Below are positions 57,315 to 64,000 of a stretch of DNA of 64,000 nt, piece after piece (within the stretch, counting starts at the first letter, position 1; the number at the start of each line of letters is the position of its first letter). Location: the sequence record PQ850617.1; one strand, written 5' to 3'. The notes beneath the pieces were generated by a model, which made no database searches, was not told where the DNA came from, and saw only the letters and a program-made list of their open reading frames with translations. The stretch is from Escherichia phage ManiMatter_Bas94. The position numbers and the translations under genes are program-made.

Positions 57315-57758
57315 CTACTTAACCCTTGCTTCTTTGATGGGGTCAATATATTTTTCAACTCCCCACTTATGTTTGCTGTCTGCGTAGAATACATCAGGTG
57401 CGCATTGGCTTGTTTTAGGGAAGGCTTGCGGATCTTTGGTGCTCCCTTTAAACTTCTGTTTACCACGGGTGCGACCATTACAGAAGATTTCTAGTTTCTT
57501 CTCCTCTTCTGTTTTAGCTCCCCCGCTCTTTAATAGTGAACGTTTATGATCAGCTAACAGCAACGCATCAGCACGATGGGTACGATGGCCTACACGCTTG
57601 GGCACACTAGAAGGAATATGAGATTCAGCCTCAGCCCTTGCAGCACGACGCTTTAAACTACGCTTGCTAACATGATTAGTTGCCTTTGGTTTCTCTTTCT
57701 CCAATTCAGAAATAGAAAAACAACGCCCGCCCTTCATGCTGATTTTAGATTTAGCCAC
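57315..57758 (-). CDS. Basic hypothetical protein (early region)
   Basis: 147-aa Lys/Arg-rich ORF; preferred over overlapping 57233-57478. Confidence 0.4.
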   Translation of the reverse strand: MAKSKISMKGGRCFSISELEKEKPKATNHVSKRSLKRRAARAEAESHIPSSVPKRVGHRTHRADALLLADHKRSLLKSGGAKTEEEKKLEIFCNGRTRGKQKFKGSTKDPQAFPKTSQCAPDVFYADSKHKWGVEKYIDPIKEARVK

Positions 57759-57827
57759 TATCTTATTCCTTTCAGTGATAAGTTATATCGGGCAAGCCCA
57801 TCAAGGCGATAGGCTTGAACAAATAAC

Positions 57828-58037
57828 TCAACCAAGTAAACCAAATGATTTCCAACTACGCAGTAAGATCGTACCATCATCCATAGTTACGCATAATTTT
57901 AGTAGTCGCTTACTGGTACTGCTCACCGTTGTGATTCGTCCGGTTGTACATTTACCTTTATTGCTATAAAGATATATAACACGATGGCCTAACAAACGAG
58001 ATGGCGCTTTCTTAAATTCTGAAATGTTAGTGATCAT
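57828..58037 (-). CDS. Hypothetical protein
   Basis: 69-aa ORF. Confidence 0.35.
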   Translation of the reverse strand: MITNISEFKKAPSRLLGHRVIYLYSNKGKCTTGRITTVSSTSKRLLKLCVTMDDGTILLRSWKSFGLLG

Positions 58038-58255
58038 TATCCATATACCTTAACATGATTGATTCGACGTGAATGATGATAAGAAGACTCAACAGCCATT
58101 GCCTTTAATTCTTCTTTTCGTTGGTTAGTGTGTACAATATCCCAATGATTATGATCGTGTTGGCGCTGTAATATCTTACTACATTTGCGATGGTTTCCCG
58201 TGCTGCGACGTTTCTCACAAATAGGACACTTACCAAAATCATTACTGAATATCAT
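58037..58255 (-). CDS. Zinc-finger-like small protein
   Basis: CPICEKRRSTGNHRKC plus His cluster. Confidence 0.35.
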   Translation of the reverse strand: MIFSNDFGKCPICEKRRSTGNHRKCSKILQRQHDHNHWDIVHTNQRKEELKAMAVESSYHHSRRINHVKVYG

Positions 58256-58479
58256 TTTCTCAATCCTAACTTTCTTAAGACACGGCCTAACGTTGTTTCT
58301 TGGGTGATAATATACCTGACCGCTTCACGTTCCAACGTTTCAATCTTCATTGGCGACGGATACCATTCACCGGTAAGCATACACCTATACTCAACGCCAT
58401 ACTTTTTAGATAGGCGGTAATGTTGACCGTTGACAAGGTTCCTATAAATCGTGGTATGCGTCGTTAACATAATCGTCAC
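58252..58479 (-). CDS. Hypothetical protein
   Basis: 75-aa ORF. Confidence 0.35.
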   Translation of the reverse strand: MTIMLTTHTTIYRNLVNGQHYRLSKKYGVEYRCMLTGEWYPSPMKIETLEREAVRYIITQETTLGRVLRKLGLRK

Positions 58480-58582
58480 CTTTGATTAGATTCTTTGATT
58501 AGTACACTGAATCAATGCACTGATAAAAGAAAAGGCGCTACCCGTTAAAGATAGCGCCTCATGTTTATTTAGATTGTCTTAC

Positions 58583-59491
58583 TTATGCCGCCTGACGTGC
58601 CGCCATAATTTCAGCCGCTTTGCGCAATACTTCTTCCTCTTCTGCTTTCGCCGCTTGTTCGGTACGGGTAGCAACCGTTGAAGAGATACGACCGCGCAGA
58701 CTTTCTAACTTCTCTTGCATAGCTGCGATGGTCTTTTCCATTTCATCAGCGTATGAGTCCAGTGATTCTAGTTCCTTGCTCGATGCGTTCATCAGATAAT
58801 CATCAGAGATCGCTACCGTTGAGGCCGTCACTTTCTTGATGAGTGAGTCGAATGACTTCTTAACCTTGCCGACTTCTTCACTTAAGGCAATAGTGTTATC
58901 ACTGGTAGCGCCGTTGCGCTCATCGGCCAACAATTTTGCTTCAATACGGATTGCATTCAAGCGTTCAACTAAAGCGTAAATATCCTGATTAAAATCTTCC
59001 TTGTTTTTCGCCGGTATTTGAAGGTGTGCCGCCACGTTGTCATTGCAACCTTTGTAGAAGTTAGGATTATCCACTTCAATTGCACGACCTAAAGCAAAAT
59101 TCTCGAAAGCATTCGACCAGCGAGCGCGGTTTTGTTCCATTTTGGCCTTAATTTGCGCTTCTTTCGCATCTTCTTTCGCTTTCGCTTCACCTTCCAGATT
59201 AATCCATTTTTTACGACCGTTCGCCGCCTCGGTATTAAACTTGATTGGAGTAAGGAAAGTAATTGCAGTGGCAATAACATCCATATCGCGGAAACGTTCA
59301 GTTAACAGAAAATCGACCGCCGACTGCAATACATCTAATTTCTTGCCGTTGCTGCGGAAGTGCTGCAAATGACCTAACAGAAAGTTAGAAACATCTTGCT
59401 TAATCGCCGCGTTATTGCTACGGATGTTGTTTGCCAGTGCATTGAAACCGGATTCTTTTACCAGATTAAAAACTTTAGCCATGATATTCAC
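58583..59491 (-). CDS. Hypothetical early protein (302 aa, helical)
   Basis: First long ORF downstream of the consensus promoter cluster. Confidence 0.45.
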   Translation of the reverse strand: MNIMAKVFNLVKESGFNALANNIRSNNAAIKQDVSNFLLGHLQHFRSNGKKLDVLQSAVDFLLTERFRDMDVIATAITFLTPIKFNTEAANGRKKWINLEGEAKAKEDAKEAQIKAKMEQNRARWSNAFENFALGRAIEVDNPNFYKGCNDNVAAHLQIPAKNKEDFNQDIYALVERLNAIRIEAKLLADERNGATSDNTIALSEEVGKVKKSFDSLIKKVTASTVAISDDYLMNASSKELESLDSYADEMEKTIAAMQEKLESLRGRISSTVATRTEQAAKAEEEEVLRKAAEIMAARQAA

Positions 59492-60303
59492 CTTTCAATT
59501 ATAAGGGCACTATTGCCCCGCTCGCTATGAGCTTTCAAGCCATTATTGACTTAACTATAAACGCTCACTATAAACGCTTATAGGTAAGCGGAGCGGTCTT
59601 ATCAGGAGTTAACCTTGCCGCTCCCTTATCCGTGATGTTTCATCTGGTATCTTTAATTAGTCGCTATAAATAAAGCCGACTTGATAGCGATGATCAATCA
59701 TCACAATAAGGCCAGTGTGTCCGACTCAATTTAATTACATTACTGTAACCGTCGGCAATATCGTTTACTCTGCTTTCGCTCCCGCCTATCCTTTTGTATC
59801 AGCTCTTTATCGCTAGTCATCGCCCACTACGGGATACTATTGCGAAAAAGTCACTAACCGCCTAATATTCCGGCGTTTTATATCTTTCGGCAAGTTTACT
59901 ACACAACACGACTATGTACTTTCATCCTAAGACGAATATCAAGCCGCTCACGTCGTAAACGTTCACACTAAAACCTTATTGTTAAATAGCAATTTGCCAC
60001 TTTTTAACCGTTCGCCGCCGCCCTCAATTGGGCGTTAATTCGTCGGGATTGTCTACCCTGATCAGTTTCTTTCATTGTAGCGCCTTTTTAGCTAGGCCGC
60101 CGCTACCCATTAACCGTGGGCGATTAGTTTTAGCCTTGCGTGCACTCAATGATTCCGCTTACCAGTGGTGACGTTTCCAGTTAAGGGATTGTAAAGCTGT
60201 TTACCCTGATAATTTAGGGAGCTTTACGCCGTTTTATCTGGTATGTTTTCCGATGGTCATTATCATCCAACATATGCAACCGATATAGGGGAACGTTTAA
60301 ATT

Positions 60304-60315
60304 ATTAAAGAGCGG
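60304..60315. repeat. TTTAAAGAGCGG motif, copy 1 of 5
   Basis: Others at 60542-60555, 60677-60690, 60789-60801, 61009-61022. Confidence 0.6.
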
Positions 60316-60573
60316 TAAATCTGTCAGTGTGCTTTCTCACACTACGCAACTGTTAGCCGTTGTGTCGCTTTTTCACTGAAGCGGTGATTTGCTTAGTGAC
60401 TTGTGCTTATTATGAATCATTTTGCTTCCGCCGTCAATCACTTTTTTAATCTTTTTTCATCGTTCCCGCTGTTGGGAAGATATATCAATCAGCTATATTT
60501 GATTGAAGATTAAGCGATCAGGCTTGAACTTATGATTCATATTTTTAAAGAGCGGTTTTTCTGACTTGTGATC

Positions 60574-60602
60574 AGTATAAACTTACTTTCTCACGTTGTC
60601 AA
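60574..60602 (-). promoter_or_regulatory. Sigma70-type promoter P1
   Basis: Minus strand TTGACA-N17-TATACT. Confidence 0.55.
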
Positions 60603-60721
60603 TCTCTTTTTTATCGTCTTCTTTGATTCTCTTCCCTTATCTCGCGTGAATCTATGCGAAAGGGCAAGACGATAAATTTTTAAAGAGCGGGATTTTTTAA
60701 GTCATCGCTGACCTTGTACAC

Positions 60722-60801
60722 TCATTATAGGTTAGGCTTTTTCCGGTGTCAATATTCTTTTTCAGAATATTTTCACTTTCTAGCCTGATTTTTAAAGAGC
60801 G
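60722..60801. repeat. ~80-bp direct repeat, copy 1
   Basis: CATTATAGGTTAGGCTTTT...TTTTCACTTTCTAGCCT..TTTTTAAAGAGCG, ~90% identical to 60942-61022. Confidence 0.7.
60724..60752 (-). promoter_or_regulatory. Sigma70-type consensus promoter P2
   Basis: Minus strand TTGACA-N17-TATAAT, AT-rich upstream; inside 80-bp repeat. Confidence 0.65.
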
Positions 60802-60941
60802 TTTAAAGCTGTATGGCTCCCATAACACCACTTGATGATCAGTTAACCTACGATCATTCAGGACTATAGTACCCGCTTAGTTGCGTCTGACTTGCTTCAC
60901 TCACTAGGGAGTTACTTGAGCGGTCATCTTGTCTTTCTAAG

Positions 60942-61022
60942 CTCATTATAGGTTAGGCTTTTCAGTTGTCAAATACTTTTTCAAGTATTTTTTCACTTTC
61001 TAGCCTACTTTTTAAAGAGCGG
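60942..61022. repeat. ~80-bp direct repeat, copy 2
   Basis: See copy 1. Confidence 0.7.
60945..60972 (-). promoter_or_regulatory. Sigma70-type consensus promoter P3
   Basis: Minus strand TTGACA-N16-TATAAT; second copy of 80-bp repeat. Confidence 0.65.
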
Positions 61023-61303
61023 GGCAATTTCTTGCCTTGTATGTTTTACATCGTACCCGATGGAAATGAGTATACGCGAGCCTTTAGAAAGTGCAATAGG
61101 GGAAAGCAAATTATTTTAAACTTTTTCACTGTAGGGAAGATAGAAGAGCGGGCTGACGTGGTACACCATAGGAAACGGCTTGTAAAGCGATAATAGGCGG
61201 CCTAAAACGCACCACAATGAGCTAAAAGGGGATAAGGTATATAATCACCTTAGAAAAGAAAAAAGCGCCTTTATTGGCGCTTATAGGGATGATTTAAAGT
61301 TTT

Positions 61304-61555
61304 TCACCATTTAGGCAAATCTGCATCAAGTAGGCCAGCAAGTGACAATTCACCGTCAACATATATCGATCTGAAATCGTCCCGATTGATATCAATGCGT
61401 ACCATTTGCAGCCATTTTTTGGCCTCGTTAAAGCTCATTGAGCAAAAAGAAACCGTGGGCAATATTACGTCACCATTTTGCAAGCCGAACGCGATAAAAG
61501 TATCGCACACGCAGCAAGAAAGACCGTTCGACAATTTAATCTCTTTGATACTCAT
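61304..61555 (-). CDS. Small Cys-containing protein, paralog B
   Basis: MSIKEIKLSNGLSCCVCDTFIAF...RDDFRSIYVDG; ~55-60% identical to 56270-56515. Confidence 0.45.
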   Translation of the reverse strand: MSIKEIKLSNGLSCCVCDTFIAFGLQNGDVILPTVSFCSMSFNEAKKWLQMVRIDINRDDFRSIYVDGELSLAGLLDADLPKW

Positions 61556-61582
61556 GTTTTTACACTCCCAAAGATAGGTTAT

Positions 61583-61729
61583 TTATTTGCTGAATTTAGC
61601 GCCATAAAACTTACTAATCTTGTTTTTCGGGCTTAACTTGCTATCAGTGAGCGCTTCAATCACTTCACAAACGATCAGGGCAAGTAAAGGAAAAACTACA
61701 GCCATAAACATCATTACCAGAATAATCAT
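61583..61729 (-). CDS. Small hydrophobic protein (48 aa), tentative
   Basis: MIILVMMFMAVVFPLLALIV...; below track threshold. Confidence 0.25.
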   Translation of the reverse strand: MIILVMMFMAVVFPLLALIVCEVIEALTDSKLSPKNKISKFYGAKFSK

Positions 61730-62172
61730 TTCTATCACTCCAATCACTCAATCCGTAGGCTTCAATTTACTACTACTTAATAAGGAAAGCAATCACCACG
61801 GGCAAAATACTACCCGCAGAACAGACCACGGGGGAACGTGCCAGATAATGCGGTAATAATATTCCACTTAAATAATTAGTTAACTATTAATAACATTACT
61901 CAAACATCAAACGTTAAAAGAAAAGAATAACAGAACGCTGAAAAAGAAAAGAATAAAAAGAAATATAATAAACATCAAACATAATCTTTCCACTTAATTA
62001 ATGCATATATCATTATTGCACTCATAATTATCACCATTGAAACTATTTACATTCAAACTATGGGGGATGGCGATAGTTGCTATCCGGTATTAATAGCCTC
62101 AATATAATCAAGCATTAACAATGGCTAGCCTTTCCCATACTCTTTTAAGGGGCACTAAATAAACGGGTATTA

Positions 62173-62180
62173 AATGTATA
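62173..62180 (+). promoter_or_regulatory. AATGTATA element, plus orientation
   Basis: TAAATGTATAGG in divergent intergenic region. Confidence 0.3.
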
Positions 62181-62411
62181 GGATGTTATACACGGGGCAA
62201 TAACTGCACGGGATAGGGCACGGGAAAAGTGGAACGTTGAAAAAGAAGGTAAAGGCATTGCCAATACCCATTTTTTAAATGAGGACTCCCCCTTTTTAAC
62301 AATTCGTCGCGGAGCGCCTAGCCCCACTCGGTCAAATCAGAATTTTAAACCCTTATATATAAGCATATGCCCCAACTTTATGTTGTGGATTTAAGCTTGA
62401 GGAACTATTTA

Positions 62412-62576
62412 ATGAATCTAATTAAAGTGTTTAGACGAATGAAATGTAAGCACAATTACTATCCTCTTCGTAAAGCTTACGGGGATGAAAGAATACACGG
62501 GCTATACTTATCAACATGGAGGTGTAGGGAATGTGGTAAGTTAAAGTTTAGTGAATGGGTAGACAGACCGGGATGA
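62412..62576 (+). CDS. Zinc-ribbon small protein
   Basis: ATG 62412 with SD GAGGAA; CKHNY...CRECGK. Confidence 0.4.
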   Translation: MNLIKVFRRMKCKHNYYPLRKAYGDERIHGLYLSTWRCRECGKLKFSEWVDRPG

Positions 62577-62747
62577 TAGTGCCTTAACGTGACATAGCCT
62601 TTATGAAGTCCCCTTTATGACATGCCCTTTACTTCAGCGTACACGGGTTGTCAATGATGACATGGCCTTTACGGGTAGGTCTTATGATGTGCCCTTTATA
62701 CTTCAGAGACAGCTACTACGTAGCGTCGTATTCAGAGGAGAAGAATT

Positions 62748-62969
62748 ATGAATTTAGTATTAGACTTTTTATCAGAGGTTGTGCCTCGCTTTCGTACGGA
62801 GACTTGTGCCTTCGTTAAAATATCCCCTGAAGAATTAGAATGCATTGGTCGTCTGGTTGACTTGGATGACGATGAAGAATTTGATGCAACGATGGAAGTT
62901 AGTAGCCTAGGATGGTTATTCTTCCGAGCGTTCACCACTATCAAACCACACACTTATAAGGAATACTAA
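62748..62969 (+). CDS. Small acidic hypothetical protein
   Basis: SD AGGAG; 73 aa. Confidence 0.4.
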   Translation: MNLVLDFLSEVVPRFRTETCAFVKISPEELECIGRLVDLDDDEEFDATMEVSSLGWLFFRAFTTIKPHTYKEY

Positions 62970-62972
62970 TTT

Positions 62973-63404
62973 ATGTTAGATTGTAAATATCAAGGAGATG
63001 ATATGTTAGATTTAATCCACACTACTCGCCCTAATTCTAAAACTAAAACACAACCATCTACTCTGGAAGTAATTGAATACGAATCTACTAAACATGATCA
63101 CCTCCCTGACTATGCTCGTGCAATGATTGAGATGATTGAAGAAGCTGAATATGAAATGCTCCATGATTACATCACCTCCAAAGATGAATGGCATCGTGAT
63201 GTTCGAATCGAAGAAGATGGTACAGAAACAATTACGTGGATTCACAAGAGTGAGTTAGTAGACGACGCACTGCGAGACTACGAAAAATTTTTGGTCGACG
63301 GCTCTATTCTTTTAGAGGAAGAGAAGGGTGTAGAACTTCCGTGGGAGGGTGAGACAGTTGCTTTAGGTAAGATGTTTAACCTGTCCGTTGGTGATTGTAA
63401 GTAA
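62973..63404 (+). CDS. Acidic hypothetical protein (start probably ATG 63003)
   Basis: Strong SD AAGGAG before second ATG; Glu/Asp-rich. Confidence 0.4.
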   Translation: MLDCKYQGDDMLDLIHTTRPNSKTKTQPSTLEVIEYESTKHDHLPDYARAMIEMIEEAEYEMLHDYITSKDEWHRDVRIEEDGTETITWIHKSELVDDALRDYEKFLVDGSILLEEEKGVELPWEGETVALGKMFNLSVGDCK

Positions 63405-63440
63405 TGTTTGCCTCCTTTGGGAGGCTTTTTGTGTTGTTGA

Positions 63441-63449
63441 TAATGTAGA
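63441..63449 (+). promoter_or_regulatory. TAATGTAGA variant of TAATGTATA element
   Basis: Directly upstream of SD/ATG 63461. Confidence 0.3.
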
Positions 63450-63460
63450 AGGAGTATAAA

Positions 63461-63931
63461 ATGTTTGGAGAAAACGGAGGACTCACACCTGCACAGGTAG
63501 CTGAGATTACAGGAAGATTACCCGGAGTAACGGAAGAACTTGAATCCAAGGGTATGAACCCAAGCAATGGGAAGTTTCAAAAGGGAAATAAATTCGGACG
63601 ACCCAAAGGTAGTAGAGGTAAACTGACACAATTAATGTTGGACCGTGTTGCTGCAAGTCATTTGTCTCCTGATGAAGTGTTAATTCAAATTTACGAAGAT
63701 CCTAATATTCCACCTGATCTTAGATTCAAGGCTGCATCAAAAGTTGCAGATCTGGTATATCCTAAGGCGGCCTCTGTTGAAGTTAAGATTGAGGAAGAGA
63801 ATGTAGTCAACGAAGAATCACTGAATGCACAAATCAAGGACTTCTTGACTGGAGCACTTGGTATCGACGTTATGCCTCCAGAAGACAACTCCGAGGACGC
63901 TGAAAAGGGGGAGGAAGCGGACGAGAGTTAA
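63461..63931 (+). CDS. DNA-binding protein, possible terminase small subunit
   Basis: Basic N-terminal KGNKFGRPKGSRGK, acidic C-terminus; sits where packaging genes would begin. Confidence 0.3.
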   Translation: MFGENGGLTPAQVAEITGRLPGVTEELESKGMNPSNGKFQKGNKFGRPKGSRGKLTQLMLDRVAASHLSPDEVLIQIYEDPNIPPDLRFKAASKVADLVYPKAASVEVKIEEENVVNEESLNAQIKDFLTGALGIDVMPPEDNSEDAEKGEEADES

Positions 63932-64000
63932 TTAAAGGAAAGAAGGGGAGGTTCTTTGACGAAGGGACTTTCCCTTTTCTATTTTTAAACTGGAGGAAGT

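Follow-up and report, generated by a model that had tools for sequence, protein, structure and literature searches.

What is encoded in the longest stretch of a phage sequence that appears to hold no gene? The question is raised by positions 59492 to 61300 of the 64,000-nucleotide (nt) sequence of Escherichia phage ManiMatter_Bas94 (PQ850617.1) analysed here, hereafter the window. The initial annotation of this DNA had described the region as largely free of open reading frames (ORFs), and correctly so: between 59492 and 60965 neither strand carries an ORF of at least 60 amino acids (aa), and this gap of 1474 nt is the longest in the window, the next measuring 421 nt. A plus-strand ORF at 60966-61193 has no family match and overlaps the promoter/boxA modules described below. 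The analysis leads to an answer in two parts. The "empty" kilobase encodes a conserved multidomain structured RNA, kept by compensatory changes in every relative examined, and the region as a whole is probably an early unit built like a ribosomal RNA (rRNA) operon, with tandem promoters, boxA elements that would recruit Nus factors, and the large structured RNA placed before the first early gene.

Among phage records, 95 match the 2-kb region (80-95% identity), all of them Gordonclarkvirinae or Kuravirus-like podoviruses, headed by Escherichia phage AidaStucki_Bas93 (94.7%) and LAMP (91%) and followed by NJ01, 172-1, phiEco32 and others. Judging by its 88-95% identity to Kuravirus phages in this region, the window comes from a Kuravirus (phiEco32-like) phage. 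The homologous stretch of phiEco32 is the 1.9-kb gap that separates genes 124 and 125, and the records of Bas93 and LAMP hold no annotated gene in it. The RNA in question and the gene that follows it, which serves as its control below, are arranged as follows:

59495-60402, minus strand: structured leader RNA of about 908 nt, beginning at the predicted start of promoter D and ending immediately ahead of the first early gene's Shine-Dalgarno sequence
58583-59494, minus strand: first early gene with its Shine-Dalgarno sequence AAGGUG, ATG at 59482; a phi32_124 homologue of 299 aa (PHROG 13018)

The leader has matches in 97 records, each spanning 98% or more of its length with 72-96% identity; among the aligned relatives it is 68-96% identical, a level close to that of the adjacent gene, and varies in length only between 1077 and 1113 nt. 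Its substitutions show no three-base periodicity (162/159/173 by position), whereas those of the first early gene are strongly periodic, falling mostly on the third codon position (77/51/247), and no 150-nt bin of the leader displays a third-position bias. One frame, about 36 codons long (60217-60327), stays open in 17 or more of 19 sequences; the complementary strand is open there too, and covarying helices enclose the stretch. The leader alignment contains no other conserved sense frame of at least 35 codons.

The fold of this RNA is conserved. Sliding-window RNAalifold predictions along the minus-strand sense (60395-59487) give a structure conservation index of 0.6-0.93 with column-shuffle z-scores of -3 to -13, the sense strand of the leader scoring better than the antisense, while in the gene the index is 0.1-0.4 and z is about 0. 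The consensus fold and the pair counts are based on an alignment (A2) of 24 sequences, all from one subfamily. This RNAalifold consensus comprises 263 pairs, 84 of which have changed on both sides with pairing kept, and 99.0% of its 6312 cells are paired. Shuffling yielded 36.5 ± 3.1 such compensatory pairs, with none of 500 shuffles as high as the real alignment, and sliding the 3' partners by 1-3 columns yielded 9-14; counted as cells, compensation amounts to 357, compared with 11-44 in the slid control. When the identical pipeline was applied to the same phages, the leader reached an index of 0.85 with 79 compensatory pairs (343 cells) and the adjacent gene 0.36 with 4 pairs (13 cells). The RNA strand is fixed as well, because G-U cells (10.8%) are tolerated 32 times more than A-C cells (0.3%), and folding is worth -233 kcal/mol for the leader sense versus -154 for the antisense. 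Taken alone, the leader of the window has a minimum free energy of -274.6 kcal/mol (z = -6.25, against -0.10 for the gene). The stretch thus combines the generic traits of a structured non-coding RNA (ncRNA), being non-coding, conserved, unusually stable, richer in compensatory changes than its controls and strand-specific. The initial annotation had proposed that the untranslated stretch could hold an ncRNA, and the structure and covariance scans, with their 84 compensatory pairs, support this strongly.

From 5' to 3', the body of the leader is divided into the following parts:

60003-60301, minus strand: RNA domain 1, closed by a covarying long-range helix (helices 10-23)
59984-60002, minus strand: connecting hairpin (helix 24), with the invariant loop region AAUUGCUAUUUAA
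59703-59982, minus strand: RNA domain 2 (helices 25-39), closed by a long-range helix of 10+5 base pairs (bp), ACAAUAAGGU.../...GCCUUAUUGU
59504-59702, minus strand: 3' series of eight hairpins (helices 40-48)

Within domain 1 lies a long, irregular hairpin (60047-60176, about 26 bp), on which a covariance model (R1) scores 137.7 bits, the window copy being itself among the sequences used to build the model. Compensatory change, frequent in domain 2, is exemplified there by the pairs 888-920 (GC:11, AU:10, CG:2) and 889-919 (UA:13, CG:11), and in the 3' series by 1116-1148 (GC:14, AU:10), 1157-1185 (UA:12, AU:11) and 1162-1180, which occurs as four pair types. A 13-nt tandem repeat at 59554-59578 forms a single hairpin of the 3' series. 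Two motifs recur in the RNA, UACCAGAUrAAAC and AUCAGGGUAnACA, each of them twice (60231-60244, 59637-59651; 60198-60215, 60050-67), and could be repeated sites of protein binding or of tertiary contact.

Upstream of this RNA, and partly within it, lie the promoters and the repeated motif that give the unit its resemblance to an rRNA operon:

61010-61020, minus strand: boxA copy 1 (GCTCTTTAAAA, RNA sense), a perfect match to GYTCTTTAANA
60930-61021, unstranded: direct repeat copy 2 of the promoter/boxA module, 79-85% identical to 60709-60801 at a spacing of 220-221 nt
60945-60972, minus strand: sigma70 promoter A, TTGACA-16-TATAAT (12/12), with a homologous promoter in many relatives
60790-60800, minus strand: boxA copy 2, about 137 nt downstream of the predicted start of promoter A
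60709-60801, unstranded: direct repeat copy 1 of the promoter/boxA module, about 93 nt
60724-60752, minus strand: sigma70 promoter B, TTGACA-17-TATAAT (12/12)
60678-60688, minus strand: boxA copy 3, about 28 nt downstream of the predicted start of promoter B
60613-60673, minus strand: structured spacer between boxA 3 and promoter C, its outer stem AUCGUCUU/AAGACGAU covarying among relatives
60574-60602, minus strand: sigma70 promoter C, TTGACA-17-TATACT (11/12)
60543-60553, minus strand: boxA copy 4, about 13 nt downstream of the predicted start of promoter C; present in 24/24 relatives
60409-60437, minus strand: sigma70 promoter D, TTGACG-17-CATAAT (10/12), preceded by near-invariant A-tracts
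60325-60362, minus strand: two hairpins just 5' of boxA 5 (helices 7 and 8), the second at 60344-60325
60303-60313, minus strand: boxA copy 5 (GCTCTTTAATA), at about +88 from the predicted start of promoter D

Promoters A, B and C are the three near-consensus minus-strand promoters of the initial annotation, which the promoter scan recovers at 12/12, 12/12 and 11/12, and the duplication of about 80 bp reported there is equally real, as a direct repeat of about 93 nt. Promoter D had been missed. It is the sole promoter found in all 24 relatives (10-11/12, at about -950 from the ATG), in most of which it reads TTGACA-17-CATAAT; the whole -10 box CATAAT and most of the -35 box are invariant. ECBP2, KBNP1711, TH34 and MG35 have unrelated sequence where promoter C would be. 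The whole window has 6 sigma70 sites of at least 11/12 where 2.2 would be expected, every one on the minus strand, and half of them are concentrated in these 400 bp; the remaining three sites of 11-12/12, at 42243, 30745 (12/12) and 19257 on the same strand, may be internal early or middle promoters, like the one reported upstream of the phage sigma-factor gene. The cluster has what is expected of sigma70 early promoters, namely near-consensus boxes, a spacing of 16-18 bp, a conserved position and a direction toward the early genes. Sigma70-dependent early initiation has reportedly been demonstrated by experiment for phiEco32. Tandem sigma70 promoters are in themselves ordinary and already published for phiEco32 and SU10, the genome paper of the latter assigning to this spacer, as in phiEco32, three promoters used by the sigma70 holoenzyme (PMC4281155). 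That paper and the 88-95% identity to such phages support the earlier claim that host RNA polymerase uses these promoters early and toward the early gene block.

The number and type of the promoter/boxA modules upstream of promoter C differ among relatives, and Bas93 and phiEco32-type phages (phiEco32, E20-1, Paul) have an additional module of about 186 bp, starting CGCTCTTTAAAAATATGATTTGTC, at window position 60676. Directly 5' of the -35 boxes of promoters A and B (60973-60996 and 60753-60777, minus strand, RNA sense) there are palindromes or hairpins with a GAAAA loop, AUACUU-GAAAA-AGUAU and AUAUUCU-GAAAA-AGAAUAU, whose arms differ yet stay complementary and whose loops vary in relatives. 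The outer stem of the spacer between boxA 3 and promoter C takes the forms ATCGTCTT/AAGACGAT, ATCATCTT/AAGATGAT and ATCGTCCT/AGGACGAT in different phages; because this stem covaries, transcripts from the outer promoters appear to be structured too.

The repeated motif had been noticed as five copies of the 12-mer TTTAAAGAGCGG, and these are indeed present, three of them exact and two with one mismatch, in 60304-61022; with one more one-mismatch copy at 57523 the whole-window total is 6 versus 0.27 expected. Since these promoters transcribe leftward, the RNA carries the reverse complement of the motif (CCGCUCUUUAAA, also written CGCTCTTTAAnAAT). The gamma-proteobacterial boxA consensus is GYTCTTTAANA, with UGCUCUUUAACAA as its form in rRNA (rrn) operons (Baniulyte 2017, PMC5725501). 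Perfect matches to it number 6 in 64 kb against 0.71 expected, and five of the six lie at 60303-61020, all on the minus strand and therefore in RNA sense. The sixth (57525-57535, plus strand) is antisense within a phi32_120-like gene and probably due to chance, as just 3 of 15 sequences, namely the window and 2 of 14 relatives, share it.

Each of the 24 non-redundant relatives carries 4-6 perfect sense copies of boxA that alternate with sigma70 promoters, and none carries an antisense copy, so that the copies stand on the strand predicted to be transcribed from the minus-strand promoters, as an element acting in untranslated RNA should. A frequency matrix of 67 distinct copies, seeded on TCTTTAA only, is informative as c-G-C-TCTTTAA-n-A-A-t and uninformative exactly at the N of the consensus and in the flanks, which confines the constraint to the boxA positions; the CGG end of the 12-mer is variable in this profile and thus lies outside the conserved element. 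The best-conserved copy, and the only invariant one, is copy 5, which has no promoter downstream and is part of an 18-mer, AGATTTACCGCTCTTTAA (60322-60305), that is invariant in a first alignment of 19 sequences and in all 24 sequences of A2. Compared with the rrnB leader (ACTGCTCTTTAACAATTTA), this innermost copy (ACCGCTCTTTAATAATTTA) is identical at 17 of 19 positions, and its counterpart in ECBP2-type relatives (ACCGCTCTTTAACAATTTA) at 18 of 19, an identity that exceeds nearly all shuffles. A hairpin at 60344-60325 stands 11 nt upstream of boxA 5; it has a GNRA-type loop (AGAAAG or AGUAAA) and three covarying pairs, and its stem occurs as AGUGUG/CACACU, AACGUG/CACGUU, AGCGUG/CACGCU and GAGGUG/CACCUC. 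In helices 7 and 8, the pair 353-366 reads UA:13, CG:9, GC:2. Judged by consensus match, strand, position and conservation, the motif is an rrn-type boxA, a putative antitermination signal.

Taken together, these observations suggest how the unit may work. Host sigma70 RNA polymerase would initiate on the minus strand at a tandem set of three to four near-consensus promoters preceded by A-rich tracts (60972-60409), and each transcript would bear one to four rrn-type boxA elements (CGCUCUUUAAnAAU); copy 1, which is located upstream of promoter A, would be present only in transcripts begun or read through from further upstream. By analogy with rrn operons, lambda nut sites and CRISPR leaders, boxA would load the elongating polymerase with NusB-NusE (S10) and other Nus factors and thereby render it Rho-resistant. 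The modified polymerase would then synthesize the untranslated multidomain RNA of about 900 nt (from about 60402 to 59495), reach the first early gene, the phi32_124 homologue, at its Shine-Dalgarno sequence and go on into the early block. It has been shown elsewhere that boxA shields long untranslated transcripts from Rho in CRISPR arrays (Stringer et al. 2020, PMC7665894), and that the rrn-type boxA binds NusB-NusE about 10-fold tighter than the boxA of nut sites (PMC2800207). As a working guess, the leader would be an abundant and stable early RNA, either a protective and organizing 5' domain of the early messenger RNA (mRNA) or a processed RNA that acts in trans.

The likeness to the E. 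coli rrn leader (P1/P2, boxB-boxA-boxC, Nus/SuhB/S4) extends to tandem strong sigma70 promoters with A-rich upstream tracts, to a hairpin, placed where the rrn boxB sits, that is followed by a boxA with the UCUUUAA core and 17-18 of 19 positions identical to rrnB including the flank AAUUUA, and to a long untranslated structured RNA directly downstream. The phage unit differs in having five copies of boxA, compared with one per rrn leader, and no boxC-like GU-rich element; the RNA downstream has neither sequence nor Rfam similarity to rRNA, and protein-coding early genes come after it.

Some observations weigh against an rRNA-operon-like early unit with a conserved RNA fold. The transcription start sites in this phage, and likewise the binding of Nus factors, are deduced from sequence alone. 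By eye, none of the five boxA copies is followed by a GU-rich boxC (UGUGUGGG-like), and no good promoter lies upstream of copy 1 in the window. The body of the leader is G-rich and heavily paired, and hence perhaps a poor substrate for Rho; the main benefit of antitermination may therefore fall to the operon downstream or to folding during transcription, which the rrn antitermination complex is also known to assist. Strong intrinsic terminators flank the first gene, so that read-through into the remainder of the early block is conjectural. As regards the fold, the consensus structure was predicted from the same alignment that was used for counting pairs, which is why the adjacent gene was run as a control; the 24 sequences belong to one subfamily and are phylogenetically non-independent; and helices without variation, such as the predicted pairing of the boxA 5 flank with the Shine-Dalgarno sequence, are unsupported.

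Other explanations place the function of the region in its DNA. The 12-mer TTTAAAGAGCGG could be a DNA site, that is, an UP element or an operator for an activator or repressor, serving the promoter about 37 bp downstream, with the leader a mere spacer, and it was as an UP element or activator site that the initial annotation had interpreted it. The spacing it gave, about 37 bp upstream of the -35 box, does hold in both duplicated modules (37-38 bp), where the intervening DNA is A-rich with a short palindrome beside the -35 box, as in UP elements and operators. Its constancy, however, is explained by the duplication of the whole module, and two of the five copies are not so placed; measured start to start, the next -35 box is 86 nt from copy 3 and 116 nt from copy 4, and the invariant copy 5 is without a downstream promoter. 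The conserved core and its boundaries are those of the boxA consensus and not of the 12-mer with its variable CGG end, the transcribed strand matches boxA perfectly, and all exact copies in 24 phages share one orientation, RNA-sense, relative to transcription. Moreover, the palindrome arms vary but stay complementary, with some U-G wobble, which fits an RNA hairpin better than an operator, so that a DNA site is an unlikely explanation. It is still harder to believe that the non-coding kilobase works at the level of DNA, whether as an origin of replication, a signal for packaging or a genome terminus. It is true that the region lies within about 2.6 kb of the physical right end, that it contains short direct repeats and that strong promoters transcribe it. 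Some phage origins, such as those of T7 and T4, are transcribed from strong promoters. Nevertheless, the terminal repeat and ends of phiEco32 and LAMP fall at 62127-62298, outside the region, and no iteron array or AT-rich unwinding element is evident in it; the 84 compensatory pairs, which include the helices closing domains of 280-300 nt, the strand specificity and the 32-fold tolerance of G-U over A-C fit RNA. An RNA that also primes replication, like RNA II of ColE1, is possible.

Two further alternatives were considered. That it codes for several unannotated small proteins is scarcely credible: the records of pEC-N1203-2Af.1 and 101114UKE3 do annotate 4-9 small hypothetical proteins (ORFs of 30-50 aa) in the spacer, and the frame at 60217-60327 is open in most sequences, but this frame is open on both strands within covarying helices and is the only conserved sense frame of its size, the third-position bias of the adjacent gene is lacking in every bin of the leader, and careful annotations (phiEco32, LAMP, Bas93, Paul) leave the leader empty. 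A more serious alternative, although a doubtful one, is that the structure is real and only a cis-acting 5' untranslated region (UTR) that governs the stability or translation of the first early gene, the boxA copies being incidental rrn-like sequence. The RNA does pass directly into the Shine-Dalgarno sequence of the phi32_124 homologue, which is abutted by a hairpin (59519-59504) and covered by a predicted, unsupported long-range pairing; leader and gene are each found in 97 records, two sets that were not cross-checked against each other; and terminators flank the leader-gene unit. On the other hand, some 900 nt with two closed domains and eight hairpins go far beyond the needs of known bacterial and phage translational leaders, and the boxA profile is too exact and too repeated for incidental sequence. 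A cis-acting 5' UTR overlaps with the rRNA-operon-like unit favoured here and differs from it solely in the purpose of the RNA, which no computation here decides.

If the RNA does act by itself, other roles come into view. It is tentatively proposed that the RNA of about 900 nt might represent a new class of large ornate phage ncRNA, made in bulk in the first minutes of infection from a mimic of an rRNA operon. One possible role is that of a decoy or sponge for Nus factors, free S10 or factors of ribosome assembly or processing, by which host rRNA synthesis would be shut down; a scaffold or an anti-defence decoy is also possible, and would fit the resistance of Gordonclarkvirinae to the defence systems tested, as reported for this subfamily (PMC11990801). 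What the sequences document is a conserved multidomain RNA and five boxA sites of the high-affinity type, with which each of these roles would be compatible.

The unit also recalls several other known systems. Like the nutL and nutR sites of lambda, it places boxA in early transcripts just downstream of early promoters for host RNA polymerase, and lambda nutL (GACGCUCUUAAAAAUU, in a longer form GACGCTCTTAAAAATT) is close to the phage sequence CCGCUCUUUAAAAAU. The two duplicated modules of the window also have GAAAA-loop hairpins downstream of boxA, but these follow boxA 1 and 2 at about 25 nt, compared with about 8 nt for the boxB of lambda with its GAAAA/GAAGA pentaloop, and their loops vary among relatives; the boxA core has three U's, as in the rrn type. 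This phage, moreover, is virulent and not lambdoid, and lambda pairs its nut site with the N protein, whereas an N-like protein was not searched for here. As in CRISPR arrays (Stringer et al. 2020, PMC7665894), boxA opens an unusually long untranslated transcript, which in the kuravirus is a folded G-rich RNA of phage origin and not a repeat array. The clustering of three strong host promoters about 1-2 kb from the genome end, reading inward to the early genes, is reminiscent of T7 A1-A3, although about 0.9 kb of conserved structured RNA intervenes in the kuravirus. T7 is not known to have a boxA array, and its short leader carries an RNase III site. Finally, the leader shares with GOLLD, ROOL and OLE (PMC12286853) a length of several hundred to about 900 nt, a covarying multidomain fold and an association with phages; it differs from them in matching none of their Rfam models, in belonging to a coliphage subfamily and in being the 5' leader of an early operon with boxA.

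Around the unit, two terminators mark its limits (61282-61263 and 58560-58532):

61263-61282, minus strand: intrinsic terminator, a 7-bp GC-rich stem followed by TTTTTTCTTTTC, which ends the upstream small-gene operon 61304-61747 and forms the upstream edge of the unit
58532-58560, minus strand: intrinsic terminator after the first early gene, a 12-bp stem with a T-rich tail

Between the first of these and boxA 1, the stretch 61140-61300 (minus strand) is C-rich and G-poor in RNA sense (26 C versus 13 G in 80 nt) and rut-like, and could render read-through from the upstream operon sensitive to Rho. Within that operon, an 83-aa ORF (61304-61555, minus strand) belongs to PHROG 14176, a family labelled "polymerase", and carries that annotation in several records, a name that is implausible for a protein of this size. 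Homologues of the gp124 protein encoded downstream of the leader occur in 97 phage records, all of Escherichia, Shigella or unnamed phages; for the window's copy, function searches gave only sub-threshold matches in Pfam, a PHROG family of unknown function and no relative in the PDB, and a single-sequence AlphaFold model is uninformative, with a predicted local distance difference test (pLDDT) of 50.

The composition of the region does deviate from that of the window, as the initial annotation had stated, with an observed/expected CpG ratio of 1.21 in the region and 1.35 in the leader compared with 0.71 in the whole window. The enrichment is not specific to non-coding DNA, because the CpG-rich zone (about 57.5-60.7 kb) takes in coding genes to the left; a CpG island with ratios of 1.3-1.46 covers 57500-60700, that is, the leader and the first four or five early genes. 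As to the genome ends, the first bases of the phiEco32 and LAMP records, including the annotated 172-bp terminal repeat of LAMP, align to window positions 62127-62298, and the right ends of both records align just before them. For this reason the window is circularly permuted relative to the physical genome, the end junction of which falls in an AT-rich gap (61750-62360), with the promoters about 1.1-1.7 kb from the right end. A genome terminus or packaging signal inside the region, also considered in the initial annotation, was accordingly rejected.

Known families and hosts offer no counterpart. The covariance models of Rfam 15 gave no match in 58000-64000 on both strands at E-values up to 1, a tRNA/tmRNA scan of the whole window found none, and no CsrA-type enrichment in GGA was seen by eye. 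A search of 5,426 complete E. coli genomes at blastn sensitivity returned no similarity to the leader, which is therefore not host-derived, prophage-borne or a recent capture from the host. In IMG/VR, the gp124 protein and three invariant RNA motifs retrieved only five known kuraviruses and chance hits, and a metagenome scan added eight further close relatives. In Salmonella phage 7-11, of the nearest other family, a non-coding stretch of about 1.05 kb (88864-89916) precedes gp151, the first early gene, and folds with z = -3.7; this stretch contains no boxA, neither its RNA nor gp151 has detectable homology to the kuravirus leader and gp124, respectively, and the covariance model of the domain 1 hairpin finds no match there (best score 7.6 bits).

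Neither the boxA array nor the large covarying leader RNA seems to have been described before. The papers retrieved on the intergenic RNA of phiEco32, on virulent phages with boxA, on large structured RNAs of phages and on the transcriptomics of Kuraviruses do not describe the element, and no paper combining boxA with phiEco32, or Kuravirus with non-coding, came up in the full text of a searchable literature that did not include the two primary phiEco32 papers. Genome annotators leave the stretch blank or fill it with spurious small ORFs. The molecular biology of Kuraviruses has been called only poorly studied in the BASEL paper (PMC11990801), and public RNA-seq of kuravirus-infected E. coli exists (PRJNA1225266; PMC12803456), taken from strain NC101 at 10 min of phage infection in a study that worked with the Kuraviruses RSB02 (PX402466) and RSB04 (PX402468).

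Kuraviruses are common and in therapeutic use. In the paper on the relative 7-11, an antitermination strategy is said to be one that "remains to be defined" (PMC8948821), and boxA is a concrete antitermination candidate for the phiEco32 group. If the interpretation given here is right, the early transcripts of a virulent phage that has no known N protein draw on the rRNA antitermination system of the host, and the biology of boxA would no longer be confined to rrn operons, lambdoid phages, suhB and CRISPR arrays. The initial product of these phages would then be an elaborately folded RNA of about 0.9 kb, its shape preserved throughout the subfamily, and a tractable new large RNA would be at hand in E. 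coli, where genetics, probing and cryo-electron microscopy are easy.

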